IMG/VR virus record: IMGVR_UViG_3300012204_000008
Span: 41,458-105,457 of that record
Strand: one strand, 5' to 3'
Origin: a virus
DNA length: 64,000 nucleotides
The translations under genes and the position numbers were made by a program. Shown in pieces: positions 3,330-61,011 of this stretch (its first letter is position 1; every line of letters begins with the position of its first letter). Under the pieces are notes generated by a model. It worked only from the letters and a program-made list of their open reading frames with translations. It was not told the DNA's origin and searched no databases.

Positions 3330-5339
3330 ATGAAACAAGAAATTAGTAAGTTTGCTGATATCGCAATGTACCAGTCAGAAGAGATGCCAGATAATACAAA
3401 AAGTGCCCCAAAAGTTTACCTTCTCAACATGACAAGGGATCCCCTAGGATCAATTGCCGCAGCTTGCCAAATGTATGAGGGGAAGGTTATCAGAGATCTC
3501 TCACAAGTAACAGACGAACAAAGAAAGCGATATTTTGAACAAGTTCAAAAGACACATCTGCAAGCACCATTTGAATTTGTGGACTTCCATTTCATGATCG
3601 AGGGAGTAACTCGCGCCTTTACACACCAAATCGTCCGTCAACGTACGGCCTGTCTCTCTGGAGATACAGAAATTTATACAGAAAGAAAAGATAGACGTAG
3701 AACTATTGCTCAATTATATGATCAATGGAACAAAGGGGGGAATCTTCGAGGTCCTTTAAGCAGAATAAAAATTAGAACTGTTACAGATGAAGGGATGATT
3801 GTTTATAGGACCATAGGGGCAGTATATCAAAATGGAATAAAGGATGTTTGGGAAGTTAAAACTCATGATGGGAAAACTATAAAAACAACCGAAGATCATT
3901 TGTTATGGAGACCGAATAAAGAGTGGTCTGAGTTGCAAGATCTAAAAGTGGGAGATGAAATAGTAGCCAATGGCGTAGAGTTAGTCAAAGATGAGAAATG
4001 GCTTCACGATAAAATTGAGCAAGGTCTAAATTACGCACAAATCGCAAGGCTATCAAATTGTTCCAAACCCACCATCAAGAAATACTGCATAAGATATAAT
4101 TTGTTTCCAAAGTCAAATGTAGATCTCGCAGCAGATGAGACATGGTTAAAACAAAAAGTTAGCGAAGGATTTTCAACTAAACAAATAGCTGAGTTAGCTG
4201 ATTGCTCAACTTCTCATGTGAAAAAATATCGTAGAGTCTACGATATCCATGGACAAGGTGGTGTTCCAGTAGGTTTCAAACATTCTGAAGAATCCAAGAT
4301 GAATATGAGAGGACCTAAGCCGAAATGGTCAGAGGAAGCTAAACAAAAATTCAGCAAATGGTGTTTAGAAAATAGGGGAGGGAAAAACCCAGAAAATTAT
4401 TCTGGAATGGATCCAGGACATAGAGTAGCCCAGGTCTTGTTCAATCACCTTAAAGAAAAAGGCTGTGCTTGGTGCGGTGAAAACCATGGAAGAATGCAAT
4501 TGGCACATTTAGACGGAAATCCAATGAATAATAAGCCAGGAAATGTACAAGCTATGTGCAATCCATGCCATCATGCGATGGATACAGGATCTCTGCCAAG
4601 AAAAACATATCCGACAAAGATAGTTTCAATCTCTTATATCGGAAAGGAGATGACTTATGATATAGAAATGAATGGTGAATATCATAGATTTGTTGCTAAT
4701 GGCTTAGTTGTTCATAATTGCTATGCCCAAGAGAGTCTAAGGTTTGCCGTTAAGAATAATTTACGTGAAGAGGTTAGGTTGCCACCTTCTCTTGCTAACA
4801 CCACTTACGATGCAGAAGAACTAGACGAAGACAGCTATACCCTGGCCAGCAATGAACAGAGAATGAGAATGGATTGGGAACACGCTATTGACCAGATGGA
4901 GCAGATGTACCACAAGCTCATTGACAAAGGAATGCCAGCAGAGGACGCACGTGGCCTGCTGCCACATTCTGTGACCACACGGCTGCACTACAAGACCAAC
5001 CTACGTGGGCTTCTAGAGCACCTTGGTAATCGTTTATGCACGCAAGCACAATTCGAATGGCGTTCAGTGGCCTCTGGAATCGTGCAAGCTATTAGAGAGT
5101 TTCCTTGCGAGAAAGAGTTTCGTTGGCAGCAAGAAACACTGTCGGAGATTTTTCGACCAGTCTGTTATCAATTAGGGCATTGTGCCTTCATGGCTGACTT
5201 TGATAGATACTGCTCTATTCGAGACCGTGTAGAAGAGCATCACAAGAAGGGAGAACCCTCTACTATTTGGCTCGATATCCACCCGTCAGAATGGTTGAAT
5301 AACCCAACAGGAGCTAGGGAGAAAAGAAATGATCTGTAA
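3330..5339 (+). CDS. thyX: ThyX-like flavin-dependent thymidylate synthase containing an intein
   Basis: HLQAPFEFVDFHF, TRAFTHQIVRQR, spliced motif RQRTACYAQESLR (RxRx7SxR), EDARGLLP, NLR, AQFEW. Confidence 0.85.
   Translation: MKQEISKFADIAMYQSEEMPDNTKSAPKVYLLNMTRDPLGSIAAACQMYEGKVIRDLSQVTDEQRKRYFEQVQKTHLQAPFEFVDFHFMIEGVTRAFTHQIVRQRTACLSGDTEIYTERKDRRRTIAQLYDQWNKGGNLRGPLSRIKIRTVTDEGMIVYRTIGAVYQNGIKDVWEVKTHDGKTIKTTEDHLLWRPNKEWSELQDLKVGDEIVANGVELVKDEKWLHDKIEQGLNYAQIARLSNCSKPTIKKYCIRYNLFPKSNVDLAADETWLKQKVSEGFSTKQIAELADCSTSHVKKYRRVYDIHGQGGVPVGFKHSEESKMNMRGPKPKWSEEAKQKFSKWCLENRGGKNPENYSGMDPGHRVAQVLFNHLKEKGCAWCGENHGRMQLAHLDGNPMNNKPGNVQAMCNPCHHAMDTGSLPRKTYPTKIVSISYIGKEMTYDIEMNGEYHRFVANGLVVHNCYAQESLRFAVKNNLREEVRLPPSLANTTYDAEELDEDSYTLASNEQRMRMDWEHAIDQMEQMYHKLIDKGMPAEDARGLLPHSVTTRLHYKTNLRGLLEHLGNRLCTQAQFEWRSVASGIVQAIREFPCEKEFRWQQETLSEIFRPVCYQLGHCAFMADFDRYCSIRDRVEEHHKKGEPSTIWLDIHPSEWLNNPTGAREKRNDL
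3651..4718 (+). mobile_element. Intein (356 aa) with HNH homing endonuclease, inserted in thyX
   Basis: Begins CLSGDTEI, block B TEDHLL, ends YDIEM...FVANGLVVHN followed by Cys; internal HTH repeats, NUMOD3-like KHSEESK and HNH (CAWC...HLDGNPMNN...CNPCH). Confidence 0.92.
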
Positions 5340-41050: not shown

Positions 41051-41734
41051 ATGACAACCCCCGGTACTCTTACTGAAACTGACAAGAATTGGATGCTAAC
41101 AGTTCTTGTCCAAGCAATAAGGAGAGAAATGACTAGAATAGTAAGCGTGAATGTCGCTGGTTCTGCCAGTCAATATGTGGTTGGTCCTGGACTTTTCTGG
41201 CACATACCAAGCGGTGCCTCATTGGCCGTATTACGCAAAGTAGGAATTCTTCCGTCAACAACAATTGCACTAACACAGGCAGAATTTGACCTATTGAAAA
41301 GCATGGCAGAAGGTACCAATCCTCTATCCCCTACTACTCCATTCCAATCAGCAGCCGTTAGAACCTATGCTCAAGCGCTTTTCCAAAATCCCACCCTTAC
41401 TGGTCTTTCTAGCCGATATCTACTAGAGCTTCTATGGAGTCGTGTTCTTGGAGAAATCGGTGTTGACTTTGCAGAGGACTCTGCTAAGGCGATGACCGCC
41501 ATTACAGAACTGCAGGCAAGGCCTTTGGCTGATATAGATGAAACTGCACTTGCAACAGCCCTCATATCGGCTGGTCTTGGTGAATTAGATGAAGTAGAGC
41601 TTGCCCGTATCGCGAATGCAGCGGCAAATGAGCTAGACCGTAGAGAGCGGGAACGTCTCGGCCCATCGCCCACTCCTCCAGCCGCCCCAACTCAAACAAT
41701 AGAGACAGAGACTGGAGCAGGAGCTGCCGAATGA
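41051..41734 (+). CDS. Non-catalytic lysin-associated protein
   Basis: No catalytic motif; DIDETALATAL and IANAAANEL..R resemble actinophage lysin C-termini. Confidence 0.5.
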   Translation: MTTPGTLTETDKNWMLTVLVQAIRREMTRIVSVNVAGSASQYVVGPGLFWHIPSGASLAVLRKVGILPSTTIALTQAEFDLLKSMAEGTNPLSPTTPFQSAAVRTYAQALFQNPTLTGLSSRYLLELLWSRVLGEIGVDFAEDSAKAMTAITELQARPLADIDETALATALISAGLGELDEVELARIANAAANELDRRERERLGPSPTPPAAPTQTIETETGAGAAE

Positions 41735-42744
41735 GAGTACTTATAACAGGCGGGGCCGGTTTCGCAGGTCACCACCTAGTTGAGCATCTCCTTACTACAA
41801 CTGACTGGGAAATTGTTGTCCTTGATTCACTAACATACGCCGGTAAGATTGATAGGTTAGTTGACTGTGAGGGATACGATCCAACACGAGTTTCTGTGAT
41901 ATGGCATGATCTTCGCGCACCATTAGACGTCGGTCTTGACAGATCACTTGGTGAAATAACCGCTGTACTACATCTCGCTTCGGCTAGCCATGTAGATAGA
42001 TCGATAACAGAACCAGTTTATTTCATTCAAAATAACGTTTTCGCAACTTTGAACCTGCTAGAATGGGCAAGGACCAGACCAGAACTCACTCACTTCATTC
42101 AGGTTAGTACCGATGAGATATACGGACCGTCACCGGAAGGAGAAGCCCATAGCGAATGGGACCCTCATCTACCATCAAATCCGTACTCAGCTAGTAAAGC
42201 GTGTCAAGAGGATATAACGATTGCATGGTGGCGTACATTCGGTGTTCCTGTCGTTATAACTAATACGATGAACATGTTTGGGCAACGCCAATTCCCTGAA
42301 AAATTCGTCCCAATGGCTATCAAGAAAATTCTTAACGATGAACCAGTTCCTATCCATGCTAAGTTTGATCGTCGAGCTGATACTTGGATTTCAAGTTCAC
42401 GACACTGGCTGCATGCAAGAAATCACGCGGACGCTTTGAAGTGGATCTTAGAGAATGAAAGAGCAGCCATGTTTCCTTATTGCGAACAACCAGATCGCTG
42501 GAATATTGTTGGAGAAGAACATACTGCGGGCGAAATAGCTCAATTAATTGCAACAGTACTTGGGCGAGAAGGTGTAGGTGAGTTTGTCGACTACCACACA
42601 TTACGTCCCGGCCACGACCACAGGTACGCTTTAGACGGCTCAAAACTCCGTGACGCCGGTTGGGAACCCCCAGTTGATTTCCATAAGTCATTGGAGCAAA
42701 CTGTTCAATGGACAGCAAGATTTCCACAATGGTTAGAGTCTTGA
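41731..42744 (+). CDS. rmlB: dTDP-glucose 4,6-dehydratase
   Basis: TGGAGFAG, LTYAG, SHVDRSI, STDEIYG, PYSASK, RPGHDHRY. Confidence 0.92.
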   Translation: MRVLITGGAGFAGHHLVEHLLTTTDWEIVVLDSLTYAGKIDRLVDCEGYDPTRVSVIWHDLRAPLDVGLDRSLGEITAVLHLASASHVDRSITEPVYFIQNNVFATLNLLEWARTRPELTHFIQVSTDEIYGPSPEGEAHSEWDPHLPSNPYSASKACQEDITIAWWRTFGVPVVITNTMNMFGQRQFPEKFVPMAIKKILNDEPVPIHAKFDRRADTWISSSRHWLHARNHADALKWILENERAAMFPYCEQPDRWNIVGEEHTAGEIAQLIATVLGREGVGEFVDYHTLRPGHDHRYALDGSKLRDAGWEPPVDFHKSLEQTVQWTARFPQWLES

Positions 42745-42756
42745 TTGGAGTAGCAA

Positions 42757-43398
42757 ATGAAACGTTTCTTTGCGGTAGCTATAATAGTTACGACCGCATT
42801 GATAATTGGAAGCATGACACCCGCTCAAGCAACACACGCTTGGGGGAATTATCATTGGGCAAGATCCTCCAATCCATTCGTTGTGTCATTGGTAGATCAG
42901 ACCACATATAATGCAGAGTTAATTCAGGCATCAAGTAATTGGTCGCAATCTGCCATACTCGACACGGCAATCGTCTCTTCGTGTAGTAAGCGCTGTGTGT
43001 CTGTTCAGAACGGTTCATATGGACTTACTGGCTGGATAGGACTTGCCACGATTTTTATTGATCCACAAACGAGCCATATCTATAGCGGAACCGTCAAGTT
43101 GAATGACACCTATCTGGTTACCCGCTCTGCTTCAGAACAATGGCCTATATATGTTATGTGCCAAGAGATAGGGCATACACTTGGATTAGACCACCAGGAC
43201 ACGGGTTTCAGAAATTCTAATCTTGGTACCTGCATGGACTATACGAATAATCCGGCACGCGATGACGGAGTTGGTAATAATCTGCGACCTAACGCACATG
43301 ACTATGAAGAGCTTGGTATAATTTATCAGCATCTTGATCGTCGTGGCCGAGGGCATGGCCAGCCGGCGAGCATCACATATATTATCCCTGCTCCATAG
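42757..43398 (+). CDS. Secreted metzincin-like zinc metalloprotease homolog
   Basis: Signal peptide; QEIGHTLGLDH and Met-turn TCMDY. Confidence 0.65.
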   Translation: MKRFFAVAIIVTTALIIGSMTPAQATHAWGNYHWARSSNPFVVSLVDQTTYNAELIQASSNWSQSAILDTAIVSSCSKRCVSVQNGSYGLTGWIGLATIFIDPQTSHIYSGTVKLNDTYLVTRSASEQWPIYVMCQEIGHTLGLDHQDTGFRNSNLGTCMDYTNNPARDDGVGNNLRPNAHDYEELGIIYQHLDRRGRGHGQPASITYIIPAP

Positions 43399-43407
43399 AG
43401 TCATAGT

Positions 43408-44052
43408 ATGAAAAATTATGCGATAATCCTAACCCACAATAGACCAACCCTGCTCTATCAGTGCGTACAATCAATCATTGATCAAGTTGACATGGTCATC
43501 ATAGTAGACAACGCAAGCAATCCATCCGTGAATATTCTTCAAAGCGGTATAGAAGTTATTCGCGATCCTGAGCAACCTCCCAATATCGCAAAGATGTGGA
43601 ATCAGCAAATTAATAGAATAGCAGAGCAAAACTCGCTCGAAGAAATGTGGAACATAGCTTTACTGTGTGATGATACAATAATTCCACCGTATTGGTATAT
43701 CAAGGTCTCTACAGCAATGAGAGACGTTGGAGTTTCAGCGGCCTCAACGCACAGTTATGCACCAATTAGTTCTTCATATCGACTAACTTCCTTAACCAAT
43801 GGCGCAGATAGAATGTGTCCTTGGGCATTTATGATAGCCGGTGAAAGCAGACTGCGTGCTGATGAATCATTGCATTGGTGGTATTGTGATACAGACTTGG
43901 ACTGGCAAGCCCGCGTTAATGGAGGAACATTAATCGTTGACGGACCAATTGTTCCGAATGAGAGAATTGGTGAATACACGCAAAGGCCAGAGCTTAGCCT
44001 CCAGGCTAAAGAAGATGAAAGAACCTTCTACGCAAAGTGGTTCGGAAAGTGA
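43408..44052 (+). CDS. Glycosyltransferase family 2
   Basis: IILTHNRP, IIVDNAS, LCDD, WYCDTD. Confidence 0.8.
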   Translation: MKNYAIILTHNRPTLLYQCVQSIIDQVDMVIIVDNASNPSVNILQSGIEVIRDPEQPPNIAKMWNQQINRIAEQNSLEEMWNIALLCDDTIIPPYWYIKVSTAMRDVGVSAASTHSYAPISSSYRLTSLTNGADRMCPWAFMIAGESRLRADESLHWWYCDTDLDWQARVNGGTLIVDGPIVPNERIGEYTQRPELSLQAKEDERTFYAKWFGK

Positions 44053-44678
44053 GAAGCGACATCAATGTTGTCTACGGCTGCTGCACTGGTGATTGGGAAA
44101 AATTCCAGCGCAATGTAATTTCGCGAGTTCAAAACCGTCGGATAATCGCCACAAGTGGACACACTGGAATTGTTGCACCTTACAACATGATTCTTGATGC
44201 AGTAGTTGATTGGAATCTAGACGCACTGATTTTACTCCACGATGATTTAGAACTAACTGATCCTGACGGTGAAGAAAAACTCATAAATGCACTAGCTGAT
44301 CCCCAAGTTGCACTTGCTGGTGTAGCAGGAGGAGGGGGAGGATCCCTATACTGGTGGGATCACTCACCAATCGGGCACCAATTAACAGACGTTACAAATA
44401 TCGATTTTGGTACACGGGAGGGAGAAGTAACCCTCGTTGAAGGTAGTATTATGGCCTTATCTCCGTGGTTAATTCGCAATCTCCGGTTTGACAGTATCTT
44501 TACTGGCTTTCATGGATATGATGAAATAGGTATGCAAATTCGTTCCCATGGCAAGAAATCCGTGGTAGTAGACGTTGATACACATCATCATAATCCAACG
44601 GGTTACTCCTCACCAGAGAGTGCAGAAATGTGCCGTCTAGCCAATCAACTCTATAAGGAAAAATGGGGATTACCGTGA
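44049..44678 (+). CDS. StrF-like glycosyltransferase
   Basis: YN...LLHDD...GVAG...FD..F.GFHGYD. Confidence 0.7.
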   Translation: MRSDINVVYGCCTGDWEKFQRNVISRVQNRRIIATSGHTGIVAPYNMILDAVVDWNLDALILLHDDLELTDPDGEEKLINALADPQVALAGVAGGGGGSLYWWDHSPIGHQLTDVTNIDFGTREGEVTLVEGSIMALSPWLIRNLRFDSIFTGFHGYDEIGMQIRSHGKKSVVVDVDTHHHNPTGYSSPESAEMCRLANQLYKEKWGLP

Positions 44679-45310
44679 CAGATGTGCCATGGACGAAATT
44701 CACTTATTCCCTTTCAGACTTCCCATTTCCTGATATGGTTGCCACTTCTATCTATACAGAAGACTTGACTGCACTTTCTTTAAAAAAGACTAAAAACACA
44801 TGGCAAACAGATCAGCAGAGCCCTTGGCATGATTTGTTTTATCAAAAGTTTAATTCATGGCAAGAAACATACATTCAATTCATACGAGAGGAGATAAGTC
44901 CATTAATAGGTGAGCCATACTACTATCAAAAAGTACCAACATTTCGTATCCATTTACCAGATAATATTGCAGTAGGTGAATTTCATACGGATGCGATGTA
45001 TCACCATCCATTAGGAGAAGAGTCATTCTGGCTACCATTGACAGAAGCTTATGACACATGTAGTTTATGGATTGAGGACGACGAGAAAAATTTTCGCTCT
45101 GTAAAGGCTTCTCCTGGAGAAGTGATTCGATTTTCAGCAGTAACACGATTGCACGGTAATAAAATCAATATTGAAGGACGTTCTCGTGTCAGCTTTGATT
45201 TTAGATGTTTGCCAGTGAGACTTCTTCCGAAAGAAAAGGGAAAAACCACCATGCATACAAAGTTGAAATTTTCTCCAGGCGGTTATTATTCATCAGAGGT
45301 TATAGGATGA
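44675..45310 (+). CDS. StrG-like Fe(II)/2-oxoglutarate dioxygenase-fold protein
   Basis: YQKVPTFRIHLP...EFHTD (HxD), WLPLT, LHGN, RVSFDFR. Confidence 0.7.
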   Translation: MTDVPWTKFTYSLSDFPFPDMVATSIYTEDLTALSLKKTKNTWQTDQQSPWHDLFYQKFNSWQETYIQFIREEISPLIGEPYYYQKVPTFRIHLPDNIAVGEFHTDAMYHHPLGEESFWLPLTEAYDTCSLWIEDDEKNFRSVKASPGEVIRFSAVTRLHGNKINIEGRSRVSFDFRCLPVRLLPKEKGKTTMHTKLKFSPGGYYSSEVIG

Positions 45311-45840
45311 AACTTAATCTTGGAAGCGGTGATAGGTATGAAGATGGCTGGATTAACGTAGATCATGGATATATAGGAAAGAAAGATCAACGAGTTAATT
45401 TAGCAGGGCCATTACCATGGGAAAAAGAAAGCGTGTCGTACGTATATGCCGGTCACTTACTAGAGCACTTAACGAAAAAGGAATGTCTAGAGCTCCTGAC
45501 CAACTTATTACCACTGATGATAAACGGTGGAAAATTAATGATCGTGGGACCAGACATAGAAAAAGCAAGAGAGATGATGGAAGCTGGGACATTTGACTAT
45601 ACCTATCATTCTCTAAATTCGTTACTCTATGGCGGACATAGATGGGAGGGAGACGATCATAAGTGGGAGACGAATGAGAAAGAGATAACTGAGCTCTTGA
45701 CTATAGCTGGATGGAGTGAGATTCAAAGTATAGGAATAAGTAATGTGGGTGTAGAATGGCCTGTAGCAGATAGAGCTCCGCAATGGCAGTATGCCATTCT
45801 AGCTAGAAAGGGAAAGGAGAAAGAATTAGATGAAACGTGA
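45307..45840 (+). CDS. Class I SAM-dependent methyltransferase
   Basis: KLNLGSG...GWINVD...HLLEHL...GG.L.I.GPD. Confidence 0.8.
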   Translation: MKLNLGSGDRYEDGWINVDHGYIGKKDQRVNLAGPLPWEKESVSYVYAGHLLEHLTKKECLELLTNLLPLMINGGKLMIVGPDIEKAREMMEAGTFDYTYHSLNSLLYGGHRWEGDDHKWETNEKEITELLTIAGWSEIQSIGISNVGVEWPVADRAPQWQYAILARKGKEKELDET

Positions 45841-47053
45841 AAACTGTGGCGCTTGCGGCTCTGATAAGCTAGATATCTTCTTAGATCTTGGCAATTCTCC
45901 GCTTGCTGACGCTTATACTGCAACAGCCTATGAAGAAAGTGAACTATTTCCTTTACAGCTAGCAGTTTGTACTGATTGTCTATTAGTACAACTAGTGGAA
46001 GTTGTAGCCCCAGAGATCCTGTTTGGCAGAGGATACTCTTTTTACTCCTCTGCCTCCCCTCCACTTTCTGCCTATAATGCTCTTTACGCATGGAAAATAT
46101 TGAGCACATACAAAATCCAAGCCAAACAACTCACCGTAGAGATTGGCTGCAATGATGGAGATCTATTAAGTCACTTCGCGAAAAGTAACTGCAAGACACT
46201 CGGAATTGATCCTGCAGAAGGACCGGCTAAGGTGGCTAGAGAGAGGGGGCTTGAAGTCCTTGTTAGTTCTTTTGATGTTAATATGGCAAGAGAGATCAAG
46301 GCGGAGCGGGGTCCAGTCGGTGTTATCATTGCAAATCATGTACTAGCTCACGTTGAAAACGTTTCGGAAGTACTAGAGGGAATTAAGCTCCTGCTCGCAA
46401 GGAATGGAGTAGCTTATATAGAGGTCCAGTATCTACCCGATTTATTGGTCAATAACTCCTTTGATATGGTTTATCACGAGCATCGTAACTTTTTCACCCT
46501 GCATAGTTTAGAAAATGCAGCAAAGCAATGGGGATTACGAATCCTTTCTGCTAAGTTAACCAATCGTCAAGCTGGTTCACTTAGAGTAGTGTTGACGCAT
46601 ACTAATAATTTCTTAGCTTCCTCCCCCCTTTATAAAAAAGAGGATCTCCTCCGATCTGAAGAATGGCTACAATCCCCAAATGCCTACATCGGCCTTCAAG
46701 GCCGAGCCGATCGAATCAGAGAAAGACTTCTCGACTTGGTCTATAATGCAGACAGGCCAATGATTGGATACGGTGCTCCAGCCAAAGCTACTACATTATT
46801 GAATTTCTGTGGAATTAATTTCAGCAGCTTCGAGAGAGTCATAGATGCCACTCCGGCAAAACAAGGGCGCTTTATCCCAGGCACGGGAATACAAATCGTT
46901 TCACCTGAAAATGGAAAAAGAGAAATGGAAAAAGCGAGGACGATACTATTACTTTCATGGAATTATGCGTCCCAAATCATGCAAAATCATATCACACATG
47001 CAGTAAGTGGAGGAAAATGGATACTACCTTTCCCGGCCCCAATGGTTTTCTAA
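45830..47053 (+). CDS. NDP-hexose C-methyltransferase
   Basis: CxxC...LDLG.SPLAD, C..C.LVQL, EIGCNDG, NHVLAHV, YHEH, YGAPAK, KQG.FIPG, LSWNY. Confidence 0.88.
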   Translation: MKRENCGACGSDKLDIFLDLGNSPLADAYTATAYEESELFPLQLAVCTDCLLVQLVEVVAPEILFGRGYSFYSSASPPLSAYNALYAWKILSTYKIQAKQLTVEIGCNDGDLLSHFAKSNCKTLGIDPAEGPAKVARERGLEVLVSSFDVNMAREIKAERGPVGVIIANHVLAHVENVSEVLEGIKLLLARNGVAYIEVQYLPDLLVNNSFDMVYHEHRNFFTLHSLENAAKQWGLRILSAKLTNRQAGSLRVVLTHTNNFLASSPLYKKEDLLRSEEWLQSPNAYIGLQGRADRIRERLLDLVYNADRPMIGYGAPAKATTLLNFCGINFSSFERVIDATPAKQGRFIPGTGIQIVSPENGKREMEKARTILLLSWNYASQIMQNHITHAVSGGKWILPFPAPMVF

Positions 47054-52543: not shown

Positions 52544-52758
52544 GAGAAAAGAGAGAAAAACTAATGGAGATTATGGGGAAGGTAGGAGATGAAGAGATGA
52601 AGGCTATTTCCTCTGCGAGAAAAGCTGTTATGGAAGCCTGGGTCTGTCCGTTATGTGATCACGAACATTTTGCTTTTCGCTGCGAAGAATACATTGACGG
52701 ATACGGGGCGCCAGAGCAGTACTGCCACTGTCCGCCTAGATTTGTTGAGGGCTCATGA
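52540..52758 (+). CDS. Hypothetical protein (Cys/His-rich C-terminus)
   Basis: CPLCDHEH...CHC; ATGA overlaps. Confidence 0.5.
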   Translation: MREKREKLMEIMGKVGDEEMKAISSARKAVMEAWVCPLCDHEHFAFRCEEYIDGYGAPEQYCHCPPRFVEGS

Positions 52759-53414
52759 AGCTAAGGGCGAAAGACTTTAGCGTAACTGTAGTGATCCCTA
52801 CGATTCCTGGCCGGGAAGAGAGACTTAAAGAGGCCCTAGAGTCTGTCTACGCCCAAACTCTTTCGCCTAATGATGTTGTCGTCTATAACGACGTACAGCG
52901 GCGAGGAGCTTGGTACGCGAGAAATTCTGCCTTACTCTCTGTAAAGACTTCATTTGTGGCGTATTTAGATGATGATGATAAATTCCTACCTGACCATTTA
53001 GAAACTTTAATTGGTACAGCCAAACTTCGCACCGATGCTGACATGGTCTATTCCTACATGGAGATTATGGGATACTCACGGGATCCGCTAGCTTGTCCCG
53101 TTAATGGAAAACTCGTTCTTCCTCTCGGCGTTCCTTTTGGGAAAGAGCAAGAATTCCATCTGCGCTTCGTCGGTAACTTCATACCGGTCACATATCTCGT
53201 AAAAACGAATTACTGCCGTCTCGTTGGCGGTATGCCAGAGCCTTACTCTGCTGAATGGCCTAGATGCTGTGAAGATTGGGGCTTCCTAATTAGACTCTTA
53301 GACGCCGGTGCTAAATTCGTTCATATTCCGCGTCGTACGTGGATTTACAACGTTCACTCGGACAATACTGGTGGTGGCTTCGCAGGACCAGACACCTTAA
53401 TTTCGGATATGTAA
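52755..53414 (+). CDS. Glycosyltransferase family 2
   Basis: VTVVIPT, SV.AQT, ARN, LDDDD, EDW. Confidence 0.85.
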   Translation: MKLRAKDFSVTVVIPTIPGREERLKEALESVYAQTLSPNDVVVYNDVQRRGAWYARNSALLSVKTSFVAYLDDDDKFLPDHLETLIGTAKLRTDADMVYSYMEIMGYSRDPLACPVNGKLVLPLGVPFGKEQEFHLRFVGNFIPVTYLVKTNYCRLVGGMPEPYSAEWPRCCEDWGFLIRLLDAGAKFVHIPRRTWIYNVHSDNTGGGFAGPDTLISDM

Positions 53415-53430
53415 GAAGAGAGGAAATGAG

Positions 53431-53901
53431 TTGAAAGAAGAGAACTCTTCTAAGACTAAAAAGTGCAATATATGTGAAGCAATAAAAAATCTTGACGAGT
53501 ATTACTTAATCAGTGGTACTCAAAAAACTAGAAGTGAGTGCAAAAAATGTAGTATTTCTCATGATAGAGAATACAGTAAAAAAGTTCGAAAAAAATATCC
53601 ACTTCTTGAAGCCGAAAGAAGATTATTAAATAGAAAAAATACTGCAGATAAGGTTTTCTCACACTACGGAGAATTCTGCATTTGCTGCAATGAGAATAAT
53701 AGGATTTTTCTTACTATAGATCATATGGAAAACAACGGCCACGAGCACAGGAAAGAAATACGAGGAAATGGTTTGGGGCATAATTTTTATTTATGGTTAA
53801 TAAGGAATAACTTCCCAAATGAGTTTCAGACATTGTGTAGAAATTGTAATTGGGGAAAGTTTAGAAACTATGGAGTTTGCCCCCATGAGGAAACGCTATG
53901 A
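53431..53901 (+). CDS. HNH/Endonuclease VII-like protein, paralog of 1392-2054
   Basis: CNIC...CKKC; YG..CICC...FLTIDH...LCRNCN...CPH. Confidence 0.7.
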   Translation: MKEENSSKTKKCNICEAIKNLDEYYLISGTQKTRSECKKCSISHDREYSKKVRKKYPLLEAERRLLNRKNTADKVFSHYGEFCICCNENNRIFLTIDHMENNGHEHRKEIRGNGLGHNFYLWLIRNNFPNEFQTLCRNCNWGKFRNYGVCPHEETL

Positions 53902-54482
53902 AAGATACTGTAACAGTTGTAATACCTACCATCCCTCCAAGGACTAGACTTTTAGGTAGGGCCTTACTATCAGTTCTCAAACAGACTCATCCCTCTGATG
54001 CAATTTCTATCTCTATTGATAATGAACGGATTGGAGCTGCTGCGAATCGTAACAAAGCTTTAATGACAGTCAAAACAAAATGGACTTGTTTTTTAGACGA
54101 TGATGATGAACTTTATAATTTTCATATAGAGAACTTATTGCATGCAGTTATTGATGGTAATTTCGATTTATGTTACCCTTGGTTCGACATCAATGGGCCG
54201 GAGTCTGGGATTCGGGATCCTTGGGGCGCAGAAGGGAAACTTTTTGATCCTATTCGTATTCGCACTGAAACTTATATCCCAATTACAGTACTAGTACGGA
54301 CCTCCTTGATCCAAGACGTCGGCGGTTTTGTGCCTCTGGGGCCTCCCTCTAATCCCTGCGAAGATCGAGGAGGCTGGATACGGCTACTAGATGCAGGGGC
54401 TAAGTTCGTGCACTTACCTCTGCGTACCTGGAATTGGAATTGGTGGGAAGGCAATACTTCAGGGCGCGCCGACGTGTGGTAA
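53898..54482 (+). CDS. Glycosyltransferase family 2, paralog of 52755-53414
   Basis: VTVVIPTIP, LDDDD, CED, IRLLDAGAKFVH. Confidence 0.85.
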   Translation: MKDTVTVVIPTIPPRTRLLGRALLSVLKQTHPSDAISISIDNERIGAAANRNKALMTVKTKWTCFLDDDDELYNFHIENLLHAVIDGNFDLCYPWFDINGPESGIRDPWGAEGKLFDPIRIRTETYIPITVLVRTSLIQDVGGFVPLGPPSNPCEDRGGWIRLLDAGAKFVHLPLRTWNWNWWEGNTSGRADVW

Positions 54483-54513
54483 GGTTCTTTTACTTTGTCT
54501 CTTGGAGGTTGAT

Positions 54514-54726
54514 ATGCTCTACGCACCTTATACGGTAGCCGTACAACTAGCTGAAAGAATCTCTGCACTAGAGGGGGGAATTCGTGAGCTGGGGGTCTCT
54601 CTTGACGAGATTGAGAAGCGAATAGAAAAGATGGCAGAATGGGCAGAAAAATTAGAGAAAGAAAGGGCTCAGGGTCTGTTAAATGTCTCCCCTTCTTATT
54701 CCACCGTTTCTAAGAAATCTACTTGA
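54514..54726 (+). CDS. Hypothetical coiled-coil protein
   Basis: GGAGG RBS. Confidence 0.5.
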   Translation: MLYAPYTVAVQLAERISALEGGIRELGVSLDEIEKRIEKMAEWAEKLEKERAQGLLNVSPSYSTVSKKST

Positions 54727-54937
54727 GTCCTCTCTTCACTCGACTCGTTTAATTTGCCGTCCATGCGAAGCGATGTGGTTTGTTTTGCCTAAGGAGGCAG
54801 AGGCCTCCTCTCTTTGCTGCCAATTTTGTGGAAGGTGGGGAGAATTCGCTACTACCTCCGATTGGCTAGAGTACAGCGTTTCTTGCTCCTCTGTTTATGA
54901 TCCGACTTACGCCTCGTGGGAGGAGCCAGTTGTCTAG
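54683..54937 (+). CDS. Hypothetical zinc-ribbon protein
   Basis: CRPC...W...CQFCG. Confidence 0.45.
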   Translation: MSPLLIPPFLRNLLESSLHSTRLICRPCEAMWFVLPKEAEASSLCCQFCGRWGEFATTSDWLEYSVSCSSVYDPTYASWEEPVV

Positions 54938-56072
54938 TGGTCTTTCCGTTATGGTCTTCCCTGCGGACTCCTCAGGCTGTGGTTCGCATCGCCTGATCTG
55001 GCCGTCGGAAGTCCTGATTGCTGATGGAGAGAGTATTACTATTGTCAATACAGCAGAACGGCAAATGAGGATCTCTTTTGATAGATCTGGGTCTGTTGTA
55101 AAAACTGATGTACCTGAGTGGATAGACGTTGTGGTTTTGCAGCGTGTTACCCATCAGAATCTTATCGCAGTAATAGAGTTTCTTCGAGAGCGCGGGATCG
55201 CAGTTGTAGTTGACATCGATGACGACCTAAAAGCCATACACCCATCAAACCCCGCATGGATCTCATTGCATCCCCGCAACATGAAAGCAAATGAGAACCG
55301 AGAATTTCGTGGGGATCCCTACCACCATTCATGGCAGAATCTAGACCTAGCGTGTCGCGCAGCTACTATGGTGACCGTCAGTGCCTCGGCTCTTTTGCCC
55401 TTGTACTCTTACGGTGTCGGCCGCGTTCTGAATAATTACCTAGCAGATCATTATTATACTGTCTCGTCTTCTCTAGAGGAGAACGTTATCGGTTGGCCTG
55501 CTACCTTAGTCTCACATCCTGATGATCCTGGTGCTTGTGGAAACGCTATCGGGCGTTTAGTGGGAGAACTCGGGGCCTCTTTCGTTTGTTCTTGTTCCGC
55601 TAATGGAGTGGGAAAGGCTTTCGGACTAGGAGACTACGTCGTTTCGGGCAAGGAGACCGAGACTTCAATCTTCGATTGGCCTCGAGAGATTTCTCGCTTG
55701 GGGATCGGGATCGTACCTCTTAGTGACACTCGATTTAACCGTTCGAAATCTTGGTTAAAGGGCCTTGAGCTCTCGGCGGTCGGCGTACCATGGGTCGGAT
55801 CTCCTAGGGCCGAGTATCTTAAACTTCACTCTCTTGGTGCTGGGGTTCTTTGCTCCCGGCCACGGGATTGGTATAGAGAGCTTAAGACTCTCGTTAATAG
55901 TTGTGCGGCTCGCGAGGAGCTTCGGGGTCGGGGTCAAGAGGTTTCTTCTCAGCTTCGCCTCCGGGATAATGCGTGGCGATGGCTTGAGGTCTGGACGGAA
56001 GCCGCCGCTATAGAGAAGAAACTCGGTAAACGGCAACGGCGAGACCGGCTAGGATGGTTAGCGGGAAGATAA
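54930..56072 (+). CDS. GT-B fold glycosyltransferase
   Basis: GGAGGAG RBS + TTG; GCG.HR..WP, DVVVLQR, DIDDDL, IGIVPL...FN.SKS.LK.LE. Confidence 0.75.
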   Translation: MSSGLSVMVFPADSSGCGSHRLIWPSEVLIADGESITIVNTAERQMRISFDRSGSVVKTDVPEWIDVVVLQRVTHQNLIAVIEFLRERGIAVVVDIDDDLKAIHPSNPAWISLHPRNMKANENREFRGDPYHHSWQNLDLACRAATMVTVSASALLPLYSYGVGRVLNNYLADHYYTVSSSLEENVIGWPATLVSHPDDPGACGNAIGRLVGELGASFVCSCSANGVGKAFGLGDYVVSGKETETSIFDWPREISRLGIGIVPLSDTRFNRSKSWLKGLELSAVGVPWVGSPRAEYLKLHSLGAGVLCSRPRDWYRELKTLVNSCAAREELRGRGQEVSSQLRLRDNAWRWLEVWTEAAAIEKKLGKRQRRDRLGWLAGR

Positions 56073-56475
56073 GTCGCTTTTCAACTTTTGAGTTAGTATT
56101 GAAACTGGCTATCCGGAACCTTTTCTTTATCGGCCAGAAAATGGGGATTCCGCGCTCTGTCATTAAGTCTCCTAGAAGATGGGTTGCTGCGCCTAAAGTG
56201 ACGGCAATGGGGAGAGGCGTGAAAAGGTCAGCGAGATAGTAAAAGATCAAGAGGCCAATGAGACTATGGGTTAATCCCCGGTGGCCTCCACATAGTTTAG
56301 AGATGACTTTTGCTAGCGGGCCTAACGCTCTACCTAGTCGGGAATTGGGATGATCGATATCTGGGAGTTGTGCGGCCAGTGTCGTAGTTACTGTCCAAAT
56401 GACTGCCCCGGCTGAAAGCGGCGCGGTAGCAACTCCAGTGACTACTCCCATCGACATGTGGGTCCTTGCCATCAA
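56008..56475 (-). CDS. YdjM-like membrane metal-dependent hydrolase
   Basis: TH, LPDIDHP.S, HRGLTHS, HLLGD..T..G.P..WP. Confidence 0.85.
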   Translation of the reverse strand: MMARTHMSMGVVTGVATAPLSAGAVIWTVTTTLAAQLPDIDHPNSRLGRALGPLAKVISKLCGGHRGLTHSLIGLLIFYYLADLFTPLPIAVTLGAATHLLGDLMTERGIPIFWPIKKRFRIASFNTNSKVEKRLIFPLTILAGLAVAVYRVSSL

Positions 56476-56550
56476 TTTATTTCACTCTCCATCTCTTTTT
56501 CGTTTAGTTAATAAAGTATACCATCCTTCTGGTTTCTTTATACTTATCAT

Positions 56551-58257
56551 ATGGATCCTTTCTTTTTGGTTACTCTTCTTATTACTTCCGGAATCCTTCT
56601 CTCTCTCATTCGAGGGGCTCCTCTCTTCAACTCCGTGGGGTGGGAGGTGGGAATGGGGAGAATAGTAGGGGGTAGCGAGCCGGGGATACGAGGGTTTCTG
56701 CGTTTTCTCGTTCTCTCTCTTGTTTTCTCTTTCCGTCGGGCTCTCTCTCCTTCGCGGCGGTTGCGGCTTACCCGCGCTAGGTTTCTCGCCTCGCATGATC
56801 TTAGGGTTTGGGAACGTCGGGTCTCTGGACATAAGGTACTGGCGGGATCTAGACTCAGAATTCGTAGTCGCGGCATCGGGCCAACTGGATGGATGGGGTC
56901 AGTAACTCTTAAGTCTTCCTCCTCTTCTTCTCGTTCGTCCTTCTCCGGAGCGGCCGCGCGACCCCATATGATACAAACTCTTTCCGAGGATCTAGACGCC
57001 TTGTTCCTTTGTCGCCGCGGCACGTTTAGAGTGTCCTGTGGCTTCCGAGGGGATCAGTACTACGTCCGCCGCGTTATATCGGATCCACTAGTGAATCCTC
57101 CTCCTTGGGCTGGACCTGCGGGGAGCGGGATCCTACGACGAGCTCCTCTCGGGATCACCGTAGACGGTGAGAAGTTTACGATTCCCTTAAACGTCAACAT
57201 GCTCATCTCTGGATATACTGGAACCGGTAAATCTAATATCCTCCAGATTCTTGTTGGGGAACTAGTAGCGTCTCGGGATGTGGATCCCTGGCTAATTGAC
57301 CTTAAAGGAGGGATAGAACTTAAGGGATGGAGTCAAAGCGTATCTCAGTTCGTGTCGACGGTCTCTGGGGCCTCTGATCTAATGAAGGGACTTCTCCTGG
57401 AGATTGAGCATCGGCGGGCTGGTATGCGAGGTCGTATCTGGATCCCGTCTGCTACGTCTCCTGATATCGTACTCGTGATCGATGAAGTAGCAGAGATTCG
57501 AGCGAAAAGCGATGTCGCTCTTCTCCGTACCATCGTCTGCACCGGCCGTGCGACTGGCGTTCACGTGATCCTTGCCACCCAATATCCCATTGTAGATGTC
57601 GTGGATAACATCGTCCGCGCTAACCTAGAAAATCTTATCTCTACTCGGGTCCAGCGACCAGAGCATTCAGAGGTCGCATTCGGCCGGGGAGCGGTTTCCT
57701 CGGGCTGGGACACTTCTTCTTTTGAACACAGGCCAGGTCTATTTTATGCAAAGGTTCCTGGGAGCAACGCTCCTATTCGCTGTCGTTCTTTCTACGTCTC
57801 AGATTCGGACATTGACTATTGGAGTGCAAAATGGATCCGCGAAAGCCACGAGACCGAGACGAATGGGTCGCCTTCATCTTCCACGTCTTCCTCTGGTTTC
57901 TTTTCATCACCCTCCTCTACTGGACCCTCTCAAGAATCCTCTGACTCCTCTTCTCGGGTTTCTAAGCTCTTCGCTCAGGCTCGCGGGACCTCATTTTCTG
58001 GAGAGGCTTCCTCATTTCGTAGGCGGGCTCTTCAGATTACTGCTTCACGAGAAGAACTCCTTACAGATTCGGTTCTCGTTTCTCTTATTTCTTCTTATTC
58101 TTCGGGGGTCGGGACCTCAGAACTTCTCTCGATTATCGTTCCTTCTTACTCCTCTCTCTCTTCTCGCTCACTACAGCGTAGACTCTCATCTCTCGCTCGG
58201 TCAGATAGGATTCTTAAGACCGGTTCCGGCGTAACCGCACGGTGGGCGGCCCAGTAA
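56551..58257 (+). CDS. FtsK/SpoIIIE-family (TraB-like) DNA translocase; alternative start at 56653
   Basis: Walker A GYTGTGKS, IDLKGG.EL..W, Walker B LVIDE, GRA.GVH.ILATQ.P; Ser-rich linker; HTH-like C-terminus. Confidence 0.8.
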   Translation: MDPFFLVTLLITSGILLSLIRGAPLFNSVGWEVGMGRIVGGSEPGIRGFLRFLVLSLVFSFRRALSPSRRLRLTRARFLASHDLRVWERRVSGHKVLAGSRLRIRSRGIGPTGWMGSVTLKSSSSSSRSSFSGAAARPHMIQTLSEDLDALFLCRRGTFRVSCGFRGDQYYVRRVISDPLVNPPPWAGPAGSGILRRAPLGITVDGEKFTIPLNVNMLISGYTGTGKSNILQILVGELVASRDVDPWLIDLKGGIELKGWSQSVSQFVSTVSGASDLMKGLLLEIEHRRAGMRGRIWIPSATSPDIVLVIDEVAEIRAKSDVALLRTIVCTGRATGVHVILATQYPIVDVVDNIVRANLENLISTRVQRPEHSEVAFGRGAVSSGWDTSSFEHRPGLFYAKVPGSNAPIRCRSFYVSDSDIDYWSAKWIRESHETETNGSPSSSTSSSGFFSSPSSTGPSQESSDSSSRVSKLFAQARGTSFSGEASSFRRRALQITASREELLTDSVLVSLISSYSSGVGTSELLSIIVPSYSSLSSRSLQRRLSSLARSDRILKTGSGVTARWAAQ

Positions 58258-58262
58258 CTGAC

Positions 58263-58319
58263 TGGCGCGCACCCTAGTTAGTTTGTGGCGCGCACCTGGC
58301 GTACGCCATGGCGCTCACC
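58263..58319 (+). repeat. Three 11-bp direct repeats TGGCGC(G/T)CACC at exact 23-bp spacing
   Basis: Copies start at 58263, 58286, 58309; palindrome TGGCGTACGCCA at 58297-58308. Confidence 0.8.
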
Positions 58320-58902
58320 GACCCTACCTGGGCGCCTACTGGTATGGCATTCTGCGGCCAGCAGATCGGCAAACCCATGATCATTCCTGGGGATCACCAG
58401 AGTGGAAATAATTTTGCGGGCATAGGATCAATTCGCAATGGCCAGGCCCAAATCCGTATTTTGAGAAAATAATTTACAGTACCGAGACTATCCCCAGGCC
58501 AGCCCAGGCAAAAACGGGGCAAAACAAACGGTAACCTGGCACAGTGGGGCATACTAGCCCACAACCCTAAGCCTAACGTTTACGGTTAGCCATGCTAGGT
58601 AACGGTATGGTAACGGTATAAGTTACTACCACGTACCCCTTGTGTACCTGCCCGCTACCTGGCAGCGTGGGCCTTGCACCACCCGGCACGGCCTAGCGGC
58701 CAGCCCGGTGCGTGCCAGGCACCACATGGTAACTGCATAGCGGCACACACAGCATGCCACCCTACGCACGCGGGCACACATGCCCGTAGCGGTGGGCCAT
58801 GCTGGCACACACAGCAATACGGCTGCGCACGTAGTGTGCGTGCGCAGCGTACGTACAGCACGTTGCATAGGGCACGTGCTGCCACACAAAGGGGTATATA
58901 CC

Positions 58903-59496
58903 ATGCACGCAGTAACAAAGTACACGCTGGCAGTGCCAGCAGGTACCACAGCCAGCACGCTGCTAGCGGCGCTGGCCAATGGCACAGGCAAGGTGTACCG
59001 GCTGCGTACCACAGCCGGTAACACGTTGCGCCACATGCCGTACCTGGCCCCGGGTACACCGGCCCACGCCACCGCTGCCGCCATTACGGCGGGCCGCGCG
59101 GCAGGCCACACCTACACCGTACTGGGCGCGCAGCACAGCCTAAGCACGGCGGCTGCCCAGCGCGCGGTTACCAACCTGTGGCTTACCAAGGCCATTGCCA
59201 GCCAGCCGCACAGTGTGCTGGCAAGCTGGCTGCAAGCCGGTGGGTTTACCCACACAAACGCCAGCGTGCCCACCGCGGCGCCCGTGTTTGTGGCGGCCAC
59301 CAACGTGGGGGTTGCCAAACCCAAGGCCACACCGCCCGTTGCCACCGCACCCGTGCCTGTGCCCAACCCGCAGCCCCCGCTATGGGTGCCCGGCACCCCG
59401 GCCCCATGGGTGCCCGGTAGCCAGCGCCAGCCGTTTGCCACCGCTAGCCCTGCCAGCAAGGCAACACAGCCCAGCAAGGCAAAGGCCACCAAGTAG
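58903..59496 (+). CDS. 197-aa basic Ala/Thr/Pro-rich protein with no Asp or Glu
   Basis: AAAGGGG RBS 8 nt before ATG; GC3-rich codons; followed by a 13-bp-stem hairpin. Confidence 0.7.
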   Translation: MHAVTKYTLAVPAGTTASTLLAALANGTGKVYRLRTTAGNTLRHMPYLAPGTPAHATAAAITAGRAAGHTYTVLGAQHSLSTAAAQRAVTNLWLTKAIASQPHSVLASWLQAGGFTHTNASVPTAAPVFVAATNVGVAKPKATPPVATAPVPVPNPQPPLWVPGTPAPWVPGSQRQPFATASPASKATQPSKAKATK

Positions 59497-59518
59497 CCAC
59501 CTGCCCCTACCCAGTAAC

Positions 59519-59554
59519 CCAGGGCACCCCGGCCACCACGGCGGGGTGCCCTGG
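59519..59554 (+). terminator. GC-rich hairpin after the Asp/Glu-free gene (no U-tract)
   Basis: CCAGGGCACCCCG / CGGGGTGCCCTGG. Confidence 0.5.
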
Positions 59555-59799
59555 CCTAACACCAAACTACGGGCTTGCGTGCGTACGCGGCATGGCCGCC
59601 CGTACTAGTGGTTTACACCGGTTACAGGCCACACAAAACCGCCGGTAGTTGCCAGGCACGCCTAGCTGGCAGCGCAACCCCAAGCAAGGCAATGGCCGGG
59701 CGCAAACACCGCCCCGGTTACAGCGCCACCGGGCAGCCCTAACCCCACAACACGGGTACAAGGGCTGCCCGGCCCCAAACCCCACAACAGGAGCACCTA

Positions 59800-59931
59800 A
59801 TGATAAAGGTTGTGTATTTCCGCAACGGCAAGGCACGAACCTTGGAATTCGCTACCGCGGCTGAAGCCAAGGCGGCAGTGGAATTCCTACGCGCCCGCGC
59901 CTATCGCGTGCTTCCCTACAAGATCGTCTAG
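59800..59931 (+). CDS. 43-aa hypothetical protein MIKVVYFRNGKARTLEFATAAEAKAAVEFLRARAYRVLPYKIV
   Basis: AGGAG RBS (the first GA after the island); followed by a terminator. Confidence 0.65.
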   Translation: MIKVVYFRNGKARTLEFATAAEAKAAVEFLRARAYRVLPYKIV

Positions 59932-59936
59932 GAAAC

Positions 59937-59964
59937 AGCCCCGCTCCGGCGGGGCTTTTTTCTT
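59937..59964 (+). terminator. Rho-independent terminator
   Basis: AGCCCCGC-TCCG-GCGGGGCT followed by a T-tract. Confidence 0.85.
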
Positions 59965-60069: not shown

Positions 60070-60109
60070 CCCTCAGGCCATTTCAAATACTAGGCTTGGC
60101 CGTAGGCCA
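60070..60109 (+). promoter_or_regulatory. Repeated promoter-like motif with TAGGCT -10 and GTA-loop hairpin, copy 1
   Basis: 22/27 identity to 60726-60752; TGGCC-GTA-GGCCA. Confidence 0.55.
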
Positions 60110-60246
60110 GCGCACCAAGTGAAATGGGGTAGGCACCATGGGTAAGCAGGTACTTATTCACCGCCCCAAGGGTCCAAGGAGCACCCCACAGCCGTTGGAC
60201 CTCACGACCCCGTCCGGTAAGCCCACCAAGAACTAAGGAGCTCCCA

Positions 60247-60725: not shown

Positions 60726-60767
60726 CCCTCAAGCCTTTTCCATTGCTAGGCTGCCCGTAGGGCAGCC
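60726..60767 (+). promoter_or_regulatory. Repeated promoter-like motif with extended -10 TGCTAGGCT and GTA-loop hairpin, copy 2
   Basis: GGCTGCCC-GTA-GGGCAGCC; similar to 60070-60109. Confidence 0.55.
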
Positions 60768-60816
60768 CGCCCACCGGGGGCGGGGCACAGCCCGCCAGCC
60801 AAAGGGGCCAGCGTCA

Positions 60817-61011
60817 ATGCGAAACATTACCCTTGCCGCCGTAATCAAGTTGCAGGAGCAAGCTGCGGCTGACCGGCCCAGGCCGCCCGGTTGGTGGTTG
60901 GATAAGCAGGCCGAGCTCAAGATAACCGGCGGGTACAACACCAAGAAGTCCAACCAATGCCACACCTGTTTTCAACAGCGCAGCGTAAACGGCGCCTGCG
61001 GTTGCGAATAA
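60817..61011 (+). CDS. Small protein with C-terminal zinc-finger-like motif
   Basis: AAAGGGG RBS; CHTCFQQRSVNGACGC. Confidence 0.65.
   Translation: MRNITLAAVIKLQEQAAADRPRPPGWWLDKQAELKITGGYNTKKSNQCHTCFQQRSVNGACGCE

Follow-up and report, generated by a model that had tools for sequence, protein, structure and literature searches.

Features of the locus

The DNA analyzed here, referred to as the window, comprises 64,000 nucleotides (positions 41,458 to 105,457) of the IMG/VR virus record IMGVR_UViG_3300012204_000008. It belongs to the genome, at least 105 kb in size, of a tailed phage whose capsid and portal proteins are ~30% identical to those of actinobacteriophages, and whose host is probably an actinobacterium. 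At positions 58492-59790 of the window lies an island of 1299 bp which contains not a single GA or TC dinucleotide on the + strand, and hence none on the - strand, against ~80 GA and ~62 TC (~142 in sum) expected from its own base composition. The island carries ORF197, an open reading frame (ORF) for a protein of 197 amino acids that lacks Asp and Glu and is predicted to contain a helix-turn-helix (HTH) fold. The features of the island are as follows.

58492..59790, no strand assigned: GA/TC-free island, 1299 bp, 65% G+C, zero GA/TC, borders bridged by contigs of other sequencing runs
58492..58887, + strand: non-coding 5' part of the island, structured, with two tandem copies of GGTAACGGTAT at 58598-58619
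58888..58894, + strand: GA-free Shine-Dalgarno variant AAAGGGG, 8 nt ahead of the ATG at 58903
58903..59496, + strand: ORF197, Asp/Glu-free HTH protein (predicted) of 197 amino acids, with a predicted folded part (1-118, including HTH helices 71-77 and 82-99) and a predicted disordered tail (121-197)
59519..59554, + strand: perfect 13-bp G+C-rich hairpin, 23 nt past the stop codon, terminator-like but without a T run
59555..59790, + strand: 3' portion of the island, 236 bp and non-coding, which includes another hairpin (12 bp, 59729-59772) and reaches precisely up to the AGGAG of the gene that follows

The second-longest GA/TC-free gap of the window measures only 75 bp, and gaps comparable to the island are absent for all other dinucleotide pairs. 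Outside the island, the observed/expected ratio of GA/TC is 1.05 in intergenic and 1.08 in coding DNA. The G+C content of the island compares with ~45% for the window, whose 1-kb bins mostly fall between 40% and 55%. The right border is exact, since the first GA is found at 59791 within the AGGAG sequence preceding the ATG of the next gene at 59800. The ban on GA and TC is local and total, and it applies alike to coding and non-coding DNA; a 1.3-kb cassette has been purged of all GA and TC steps on both strands by selection acting at the DNA level.

Contigs which are 100% identical to the window and span both borders of the island are present in four further soil metagenome runs from four different studies. 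The recurrence of the same island across both borders in independent runs indicates that it is real DNA and rules out an assembly artefact as its origin. All runs listed for the island sequence consist of soil DNA contigs assembled from short reads, with no RNA run among those listed, and the sequences are identical, with zero population variation.

Three further origins of the island were considered and rejected. Hypermutation by a deaminase does not agree with the high G+C content or the lack of any enrichment in TT/AA, and a total absence of the motif requires selection. A general avoidance of restriction sites is contradicted by the many palindromes left in the island, such as GGTACC, GCTAGC, and CCCGGG. 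Finally, a shift in the replication strand does not apply, as the skew between GA and TC merely tracks gene composition.

Composition and coding evidence of ORF197

ORF197 is encoded on the + strand, starting with the ATG at 58903 and ending with the TAG stop codon at 59494-59496. An earlier inspection of the locus, made without database searches (the sequence-only reading), had described an ORF devoid of Asp and Glu, which uses only AGY codons for Ser, TTT for Phe, and ATT for Ile, avoids GGA, CGA, CTC, and GTC, and is terminated by TAG. The codon table bears out each of these points, with no codon for Asp or Glu, 10 AGC and one AGT codon for Ser, three TTT codons for Phe, two ATT codons for Ile, and none of the four avoided codons. 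Every compositional oddity of ORF197 is explained by the absence of GA and TC in its DNA, because such a ban forbids all GAN and TCN codons as well as TTC, ATC, GGA, CGA, AGA, CTC, GTC, and TGA, and in addition the usual GGAG ribosome-binding site. The replacement of AGGAG or GGAGG by AAAGGGG had also been noted correctly, the variant being located 8 nt before the ATG, whereas AGGAG, GGAG, or GAGG serves as the ribosome-binding site of most other + strand ORFs in the window. Among the 51 non-overlapping + strand ORFs of at least 120 residues, ORF197 is the only acid-free frame; the median content of Asp+Glu is 11.4%, and the next lowest value is 3.8%. The product is indeed basic, as had been supposed, with an isoelectric point (pI) of 11.5, K+R=15, and seven His residues.

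The openness of the frame is not significant by itself, because TGA is impossible in a GA/TC-free sequence and the G+C content is high. As judged from simulated GA/TC-free sequences of 1299 bp, the chance of finding at least 251 open codons in at least one of six frames is P ~0.10. The coding evidence comes instead from a 3-base periodicity (chi-square 50.8, p=3e-9), which is confined to the ORF and missing from both the 5' flank (58492-58902; p=0.57) and the 3' flank (59497-59790; p=0.93). Purines prevail at codon position 1, and the G+C content of position 3 is 76%. Taken together with the remote homologs and the confident alignment-based fold prediction described below, the periodicity establishes ORF197 as a real gene, as the sequence-only reading had proposed. 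We favour the start codon at 58903 over an upstream ATG at 58780, because the homology to other proteins begins near residue 4 and because AAAGGGG is present ahead of 58903.

The lack of GA both in the ORF197 message and in its Shine-Dalgarno sequence might alternatively reflect a constraint at the level of RNA, in that the transcript avoids a GA-directed RNA-modifying or -cutting defence, e.g., an mRNA ADP-ribosyltransferase of the CmdT type. In single-stranded RNA, CmdT modifies adenine within GA dinucleotides, and its likely targets have been stated to include Shine-Dalgarno sequences (PMC11618068). However, a GA-specific RNA enzyme leaves unexplained that TC (UC in the transcript) is equally missing from the sense strand (0 vs. 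~62 expected), and the ban extends over ~700 bp of non-coding flanks without periodicity. We therefore regard an RNA-level constraint as highly improbable.

The 396 bp of structured non-coding DNA ahead of the ribosome-binding site presumably hold the control region of ORF197. The RNA fold of 58492-58902 shows a z value of -3.46, and that of 59497-59799 on the other side of the gene a value of -4.39. Scans of the island against Rfam and for tRNA genes gave nothing above threshold. A count of operator-like k-mers returned GCTGGCA/TGCCAGC seven times vs. 1.5 expected, which is inside the null distribution for the most frequent k-mer.

Homologs of ORF197 and recoding of the protein

A phmmer search of ORF197 against 1.84 billion representative proteins yielded 15 matches (E values of 5e-6 to 5e-4) with identities of 30-43%, mostly extending over residues 4-116. 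The matching proteins are mostly 113-154 residues long, and one contains 292 residues. Using the profile of a 16-sequence family alignment (A1), 45 proteins were found, and ORF197 itself was scored at E=1e-39. A family set of 61 proteins including ORF197 was aligned with MAFFT. The core of the family is represented by the motif NGTLRxLPYLAPGSxAR, followed by AE, RRxAGxT, IAxD, and SxATVRRxLTxLxLAxAIExG. The counterparts of these motifs in ORF197 are GNTLRHMPYLAPGTPAH ... SLSTAAAQRAVTNLWLTKAIAS, and GNTLRHMPYLAPGT is the segment corresponding to NGTLRxLPYLAPGS. ORF197 itself shows no match in Pfam, PHROGs, or NCBIfam, and none of these databases contains a curated family for the group.

The remaining 60 members of the family contain 8-32 Asp+Glu residues each (5.5-22.5%), and only ORF197 contains none. 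The replacements in ORF197 at five alignment columns with a high share of acidic residues are listed below.

Position 22: Ala (GCG) in ORF197; acidic in 81% of the family
Position 59: Ala (GCC) in ORF197; acidic in 95% of the family
Position 77: Gln (CAG) in ORF197; acidic in 72% of the family
Position 99: Ala (GCC) in ORF197; Glu in 100% of the family
Position 104: Ser (AGT) in ORF197; acidic in 86% of the family

Several of the ORF197 codons at formerly acidic columns differ by a single base change from a GAN codon. ORF197 agrees with the consensus at 42% of the conserved non-acidic columns, and other divergent members do so at 39-44%, so that the protein apart from its acidic positions still appears to be under constraint. 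The conserved columns tested in A1 were R35, T41, R43, PYLAPG, A58, G68, S81, R87, L92, and L94, along with R55, R86, and E99. Of these, ORF197 retains all six invariant columns, PYLAPG, and five of the eight near-invariant columns, while R55 is changed to His, R86 to Gln, and E99 to Ala. Note that the two Arg residues were lost although the Arg codons CGC, CGG, CGT, and AGG are permitted in GA/TC-free DNA; Arg55 and Arg86 may have paired with the lost acids in salt bridges and may have disappeared together with them.

Since the homologs contain Asp and Glu and reside in ordinary DNA, the composition of ORF197 is imposed by its DNA stretch and does not represent a family trait; selection at the DNA level overrode protein conservation. 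The sequence-only reading had spoken of a protein shaped by a DNA constraint and had counted homologs with Asp or Glu in ordinary DNA as speaking against this view. Such homologs were found, yet they back the proposed constraint rather than refuting it. ORF197 is thus very probably a real gene that has been recoded by a ban acting on its DNA. In this gene, selection on the raw DNA sequence overrules protein chemistry, leaving an HTH domain, predicted to be folded, that is built from an amino acid alphabet of 18 letters and has lost a family-invariant Glu. An acid-free HTH of this kind offers a natural test case for the design of proteins with reduced alphabets.

Predicted structure and relation to other HTH proteins

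AlphaFold2 gave an uninformative model from the single sequence (pLDDT, the predicted local distance difference test score, of 40); with the 16 sequences of A1 as input, the pLDDT values were mostly >90 for residues 11-118. The predicted elements are a strand (5-10), a helix (17-26), two strands (30-35 and 41-45), four helices (53-66, 71-77, 82-99, and 103-112), and a final strand (114-117). They form a small beta/alpha part and an HTH, whose three helices (53-66, 71-77, and 82-99) are predicted at pLDDT >90. The HTH-like part recognized in the sequence-only reading coincides with the helices 71-77 and 82-99. The Pro/Lys-rich tail with a repeated WVPG motif is present as well, corresponding to residues 121-197, which are rich in Pro, Ala, and Lys, contain two WVPG motifs, and are predicted to be disordered.

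Further evidence for the HTH assignment comes from weak matches to HTH_23 in 14 of the 16 aligned family members, some of which also match HTH_7 or Sigma70_r4_2, with all Pfam scores under the curated cut-offs. Structural alignment with VIA-align superposes residues 49-103 on HTH domains at a root-mean-square deviation of 2-2.5 A over ~50 residues and Z scores of 6-7.8, a range (Z <=7.8) that the tool itself calls common for unrelated models. All matched structures are generic HTH domains aligned to residues 49-103, comprising sigma region 4, the LuxR, DeoR, and SorC types, KorB/ParB, and the DNA-binding domain of small terminases. A Foldseek search of the model against PDB and BFVD gave nothing at E<=0.001, a profile search against PDB sequences produced weak generic HTH matches only, and the ESM Atlas returned weak leads only (HTH_58 at 0.77).

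While residues 49-103 resemble sigma-70 region 4 and HTH domains of the LuxR/DeoR type in their predicted fold, ORF197 differs from sigma factors in lacking region 2 and any Pfam sigma domain, the structural likeness being limited to the region-4-like HTH, and it differs from LuxR/DeoR-type regulators in lacking a receiver or ligand domain. With its pI of 11.5 and its lack of acids, it also differs from anti-restriction proteins of the Ocr or ArdA type, whose strongly acidic surface mimics the DNA backbone. The sequence-only reading had suggested a factor binding to DNA or RNA polymerase. The first part of this suggestion agrees with the predicted HTH, and DNA binding is the likely activity of ORF197; the polymerase part comes down to a generic likeness to sigma region 4 at Z <=7.8. 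Most likely, ORF197 acts as a sequence-specific regulator or an architectural DNA-binding protein, with the basic disordered tail adding non-specific affinity to DNA.

As judged from the alignment, ORF197 is a divergent and extreme member of an uncharacterized, unnamed family of small HTH proteins occurring in actinobacterial mobile elements. The known sources of the family are metagenomes and a few genomes of Nocardioides and Aeromicrobium, with members present in 5 of 301 sampled genomes of that order. Representatives such as an "HTH domain-containing protein" from Nocardioides caricicola (P0038) and a hypothetical protein from Nocardioides sp. zg-1230 (P0032) share with ORF197 the core of ~100 residues, the NGTLRxLPYLAPGS motif, and the S..R recognition helix. 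A beta/alpha part with an HTH fold is predicted for both the family and ORF197, as is a basic low-complexity tail of Lys, Ala, and Pro. However, the relatives contain 5.5-22.5% Asp+Glu and are encoded in ordinary high-G+C DNA, whereas ORF197 is free of acids and bears its tail at the C-terminus.

The genomic settings differ as well, ORF197 being located in a tailed-phage genome next to an FtsK/TraB-like gene, unlike its relatives in integrative elements. A tyrosine integrase is encoded within 5 kb of five of the six genomic family copies, and an FtsK gene is found near none of them; no integrase was matched among the scanned ORFs of the window. The other neighbours of the family copies appear as variable cargo, including genes for an AIPR protein, an HTH_31/DUF5753 protein, a 5'-nucleotidase, and a resolvase. 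It was also observed that small islands with a reduced G+C content, situated next to housekeeping genes, carry family copies (L039 from N. caricicola and L054-L058) at their edge, along with a tyrosine integrase and variable cargo, e.g., an AIPR abortive-infection protein. The copy of Nocardioides soli (L041, L044/L045) is split over two frames and lies beside a DDE transposase. From these settings, the family appears to be a small DNA-binding component of integrative mobile elements, which may serve as a regulator, or as an excision or architectural factor.

The combined evidence also bears on whether ORF197 is still translated. The frame might be a relic within an island whose role is that of a DNA or RNA element (an origin, a site of packaging or transfer, or a structured RNA) and which retains only the trace of an ancestral HTH gene. 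This would agree with the value of P ~0.10 for an open frame of this length in G+C-rich sequence without GA and TC, with the loss of the invariant Glu and two near-invariant Arg residues, with the strong structure in both flanks, and with the lack of RNA runs among those listed for the sequence. It is at odds with the intact frame of 197 codons, which is equipped with an ATG and a correctly spaced Shine-Dalgarno sequence, with a periodicity of the coding type in the ORF only, with the retention of non-acidic conserved residues to the same degree as in other divergent members, with the confident fold prediction, and with the terminator-like hairpin past the stop codon. We consider a relic frame to be improbable.

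Possible reasons for the ban on GA and TC

The equal and total absence of GA and TC from one strand, in coding and non-coding DNA, points to a target in double-stranded DNA. It further points to an asymmetric dinucleotide that is read on either strand as the banned target, of which even one site is costly. The best joint explanation, to which we assign a probability of roughly 0.55, is that ORF197 is a functional gene in a cassette exempt from a TC/GA-directed enzyme, probably that of the phage's own modification system. According to this proposal, the cassette has to be devoid of targets for an enzyme whose action on double-stranded DNA is directed at the TC/GA step, and this enzyme would probably catalyze a phage-directed base modification covering the remainder of the genome. 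In that case, the cassette would persist as ordinary DNA, usable by the RNA polymerase and DNA-binding proteins of the host whatever the modification state of the genome. ORF197 itself was rebuilt without Asp and Glu under the ban, even at the position of the family-invariant Glu, with AAAGGGG taking the place of the usual ribosome-binding site. We see about an even chance that the phage spares the cassette from its own mark so as to preserve it as ordinary DNA.

Several enzymes of suitable specificity have been described. The phage T-dioxygenase 5mYOX97 prefers NTC, and the ParB-independent clade of these enzymes is often linked to glycosyltransferases (PMC13229309). The hypermodifications derived from 5-hydroxymethyldeoxyuridine (5-hmdU) in phages M6, ViI, and PhiW-14 are located at TG/TC (PMC6449724), and the DpdA enzyme of phage iggy inserts dPreQ0 strictly at GA (PMC10484667). 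These systems read a two-base step on double-stranded DNA, which is what a symmetric ban on GA/TC would evade. The papers on such context-specific modification deal with the modified sites, and none of those found describes a motif-free island or genome stretch or an acid-free recoded gene or protein. The window contains a gene for ThyX (3330-5339; Pfam Thy1, E=3e-32), which is interrupted by an intein with HNH and HTH-like segments. Sugar genes are located at 41731-47053, 52755-54482, and 54897-56072. They encode a nucleoside diphosphate (NDP)-sugar 4,6-dehydratase and a sugar C-methyltransferase, besides at least four glycosyltransferases of the GT2 type and another protein resembling a glycosyltransferase. 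The ThyX, sugar pathway, and GT2 genes would fit a modified genome, but are no proof of it.

Several points weigh against an exemption from the phage's own modification. The sugar genes could equally serve the glycosylation of the virion, the envelope, or the cell wall. None of the ~55 ORFs scanned with Pfam or PHROGs in the window (64 kb out of at least 105 kb for the genome) matched a TC/GA-specific enzyme (TET/JBP-type dioxygenase 5mYOX, 5-hmdU kinase, DpdA, or DNA methyltransferase). The modification of the virion DNA is itself a proposal. A search for sigma-70-type promoters in the island gave no match, and no promoter was identified there. The loss of the near-invariant residues R55, R86, and E99 might conceivably have altered or weakened the function of the protein.

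Finally, the searches performed revealed close relatives neither of the phage nor of the ORF197 gene. A word-indexed search of 5.8 billion proteins recovered the ORF197 gene alone. Searches of isolate phages with the island (blastn) and of isolate phages and plasmids with a family member (tblastn) gave no match, no relative was returned by scans of IMG/VR with ORF197 or with the family alignment, and scans of metagenome contigs with family member P0016 and with an exact 35-mer of the ORF197 gene found none. Scans with the neighbouring genes identified 38 loci, mostly of high G+C content, of which none contains a GA/TC-free island; as all of them are distant (<=42% identity), they are little informative.

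A symmetric ban on both strands is equally expected if the cassette is shielded from a TC/GA-damaging enzyme attacking double-stranded DNA, be it a host enzyme such as a double-stranded DNA cytosine deaminase of the DddA type or a DNA ADP-ribosyltransferase of the DarT type, or a frequent-cutting nuclease of host or phage origin. Such an enzyme would strike ordinary DNA, and the ORF197 gene would have to come through undamaged. The completeness of the ban suggests that one site is already costly, and DddA deaminates C in the 5'-TC context of double-stranded DNA (PMC10442228), which counts in favour of such an attack. It leaves unexplained, however, why only 1.3 kb out of at least 105 kb need protection, unless the rest is modified, in which case this explanation merges with the exemption from a modifying enzyme. 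Moreover, the system is uncultured and not known to have a host enzyme of this kind, and the motifs recognized by DarT are longer than a dinucleotide. Shielding from attack is therefore conceivable, but appears doubtful to us.

A more specific version of the exemption proposal would regard the cassette as a "pioneer" transcription unit, i.e., as the sole ordinary stretch of a TC-modified (e.g., oxidized and glycosylated) genome, which is read at once by the host machinery and whose acid-free HTH protein licenses the expression or replication of the remainder. We consider this version unlikely. The sequence-only reading had already raised a first-expressed factor that possibly enables the modified remainder to be read or neutralises a defence; these roles remain proposals. 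If it were true, the banned dinucleotide would directly reveal the specificity of an undescribed modification system in an uncultured actinobacterial phage. For the exemption from modification in general, islands of this type would provide a computational read-out of the specificity of DNA-modifying enzymes in uncultured phages and would point to the genes which have to be readable for the phage at any time.

The known avoidance of restriction sites and other short motifs in phages follows the same principle, as selection deletes the target of an enzyme acting on DNA. Classical avoidance is genome-wide and concerns mostly palindromic motifs of 4-8 bp, with amino acids rarely being lost, whereas the island around ORF197 is free of a dinucleotide, in a total but local manner (1.3 kb), and an entire class of amino acids is removed from the protein. 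The novelty of the case is this total but local avoidance of a dinucleotide motif that removes an amino acid class, for which the acid-containing cellular homologs show both the direction and the cost of the recoding.

Surroundings of the island

Upstream of the island, the window contains a glycosyltransferase-like gene, a YdjM-like gene on the opposite strand, and an FtsK/SpoIIIE-type gene ending at 58257. Many small + strand genes follow downstream, with a strong terminator at 59937-59956. In the region 54000-58500, TC exceeds GA on the + strand (GA-TC skew down to -0.32) despite the presence of + strand genes, whereas the rest of the window is mostly GA-rich on the coding strand. This excess of TC results in proteins rich in Ser and Leu, such as the FtsK/SpoIIIE-like protein encoded at 56551-58257.

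Two short leaders downstream of the island resemble it in miniature. The leader at 60740-60814 has a length of 75 bp with 0 GA/TC (~9 expected). It begins with a promoter-like TAGGCT and a hairpin with a GTA loop and continues up to a small ORF with its ATG at 60817, which is again preceded by AAAGGGG. The leader at 60084-60158 contains one GA (~9 expected) and likewise combines a promoter-like TAGGCT with a GTA-loop hairpin, leading to a small ORF with its ATG at 60138. The upstream motifs of both leaders align over ~45 nt; the island lacks a convincing copy of the repeated promoter-like motif that is found at 60070 and 60726. In both leaders, the ban ends at or shortly past the start codon, and only in the case of ORF197 does it cover a whole gene.

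An 18-nt direct repeat, GCAATGGCC(A/G)GGC(C/G)CAAA, is present at 58435-58452 and 59689-59706 with 16 of 18 positions matching. One copy lies just beyond the left border of the island and the other close to its right end, with a weaker third copy at 59822, and the repeat could be due to chance or represent a relic of the insertion of the cassette. Outside the island, a GA/TC-free stretch of 55 bp (58260-58315) directly follows the stop codon of the FtsK/TraB-like gene and constitutes the third-longest gap of the window.

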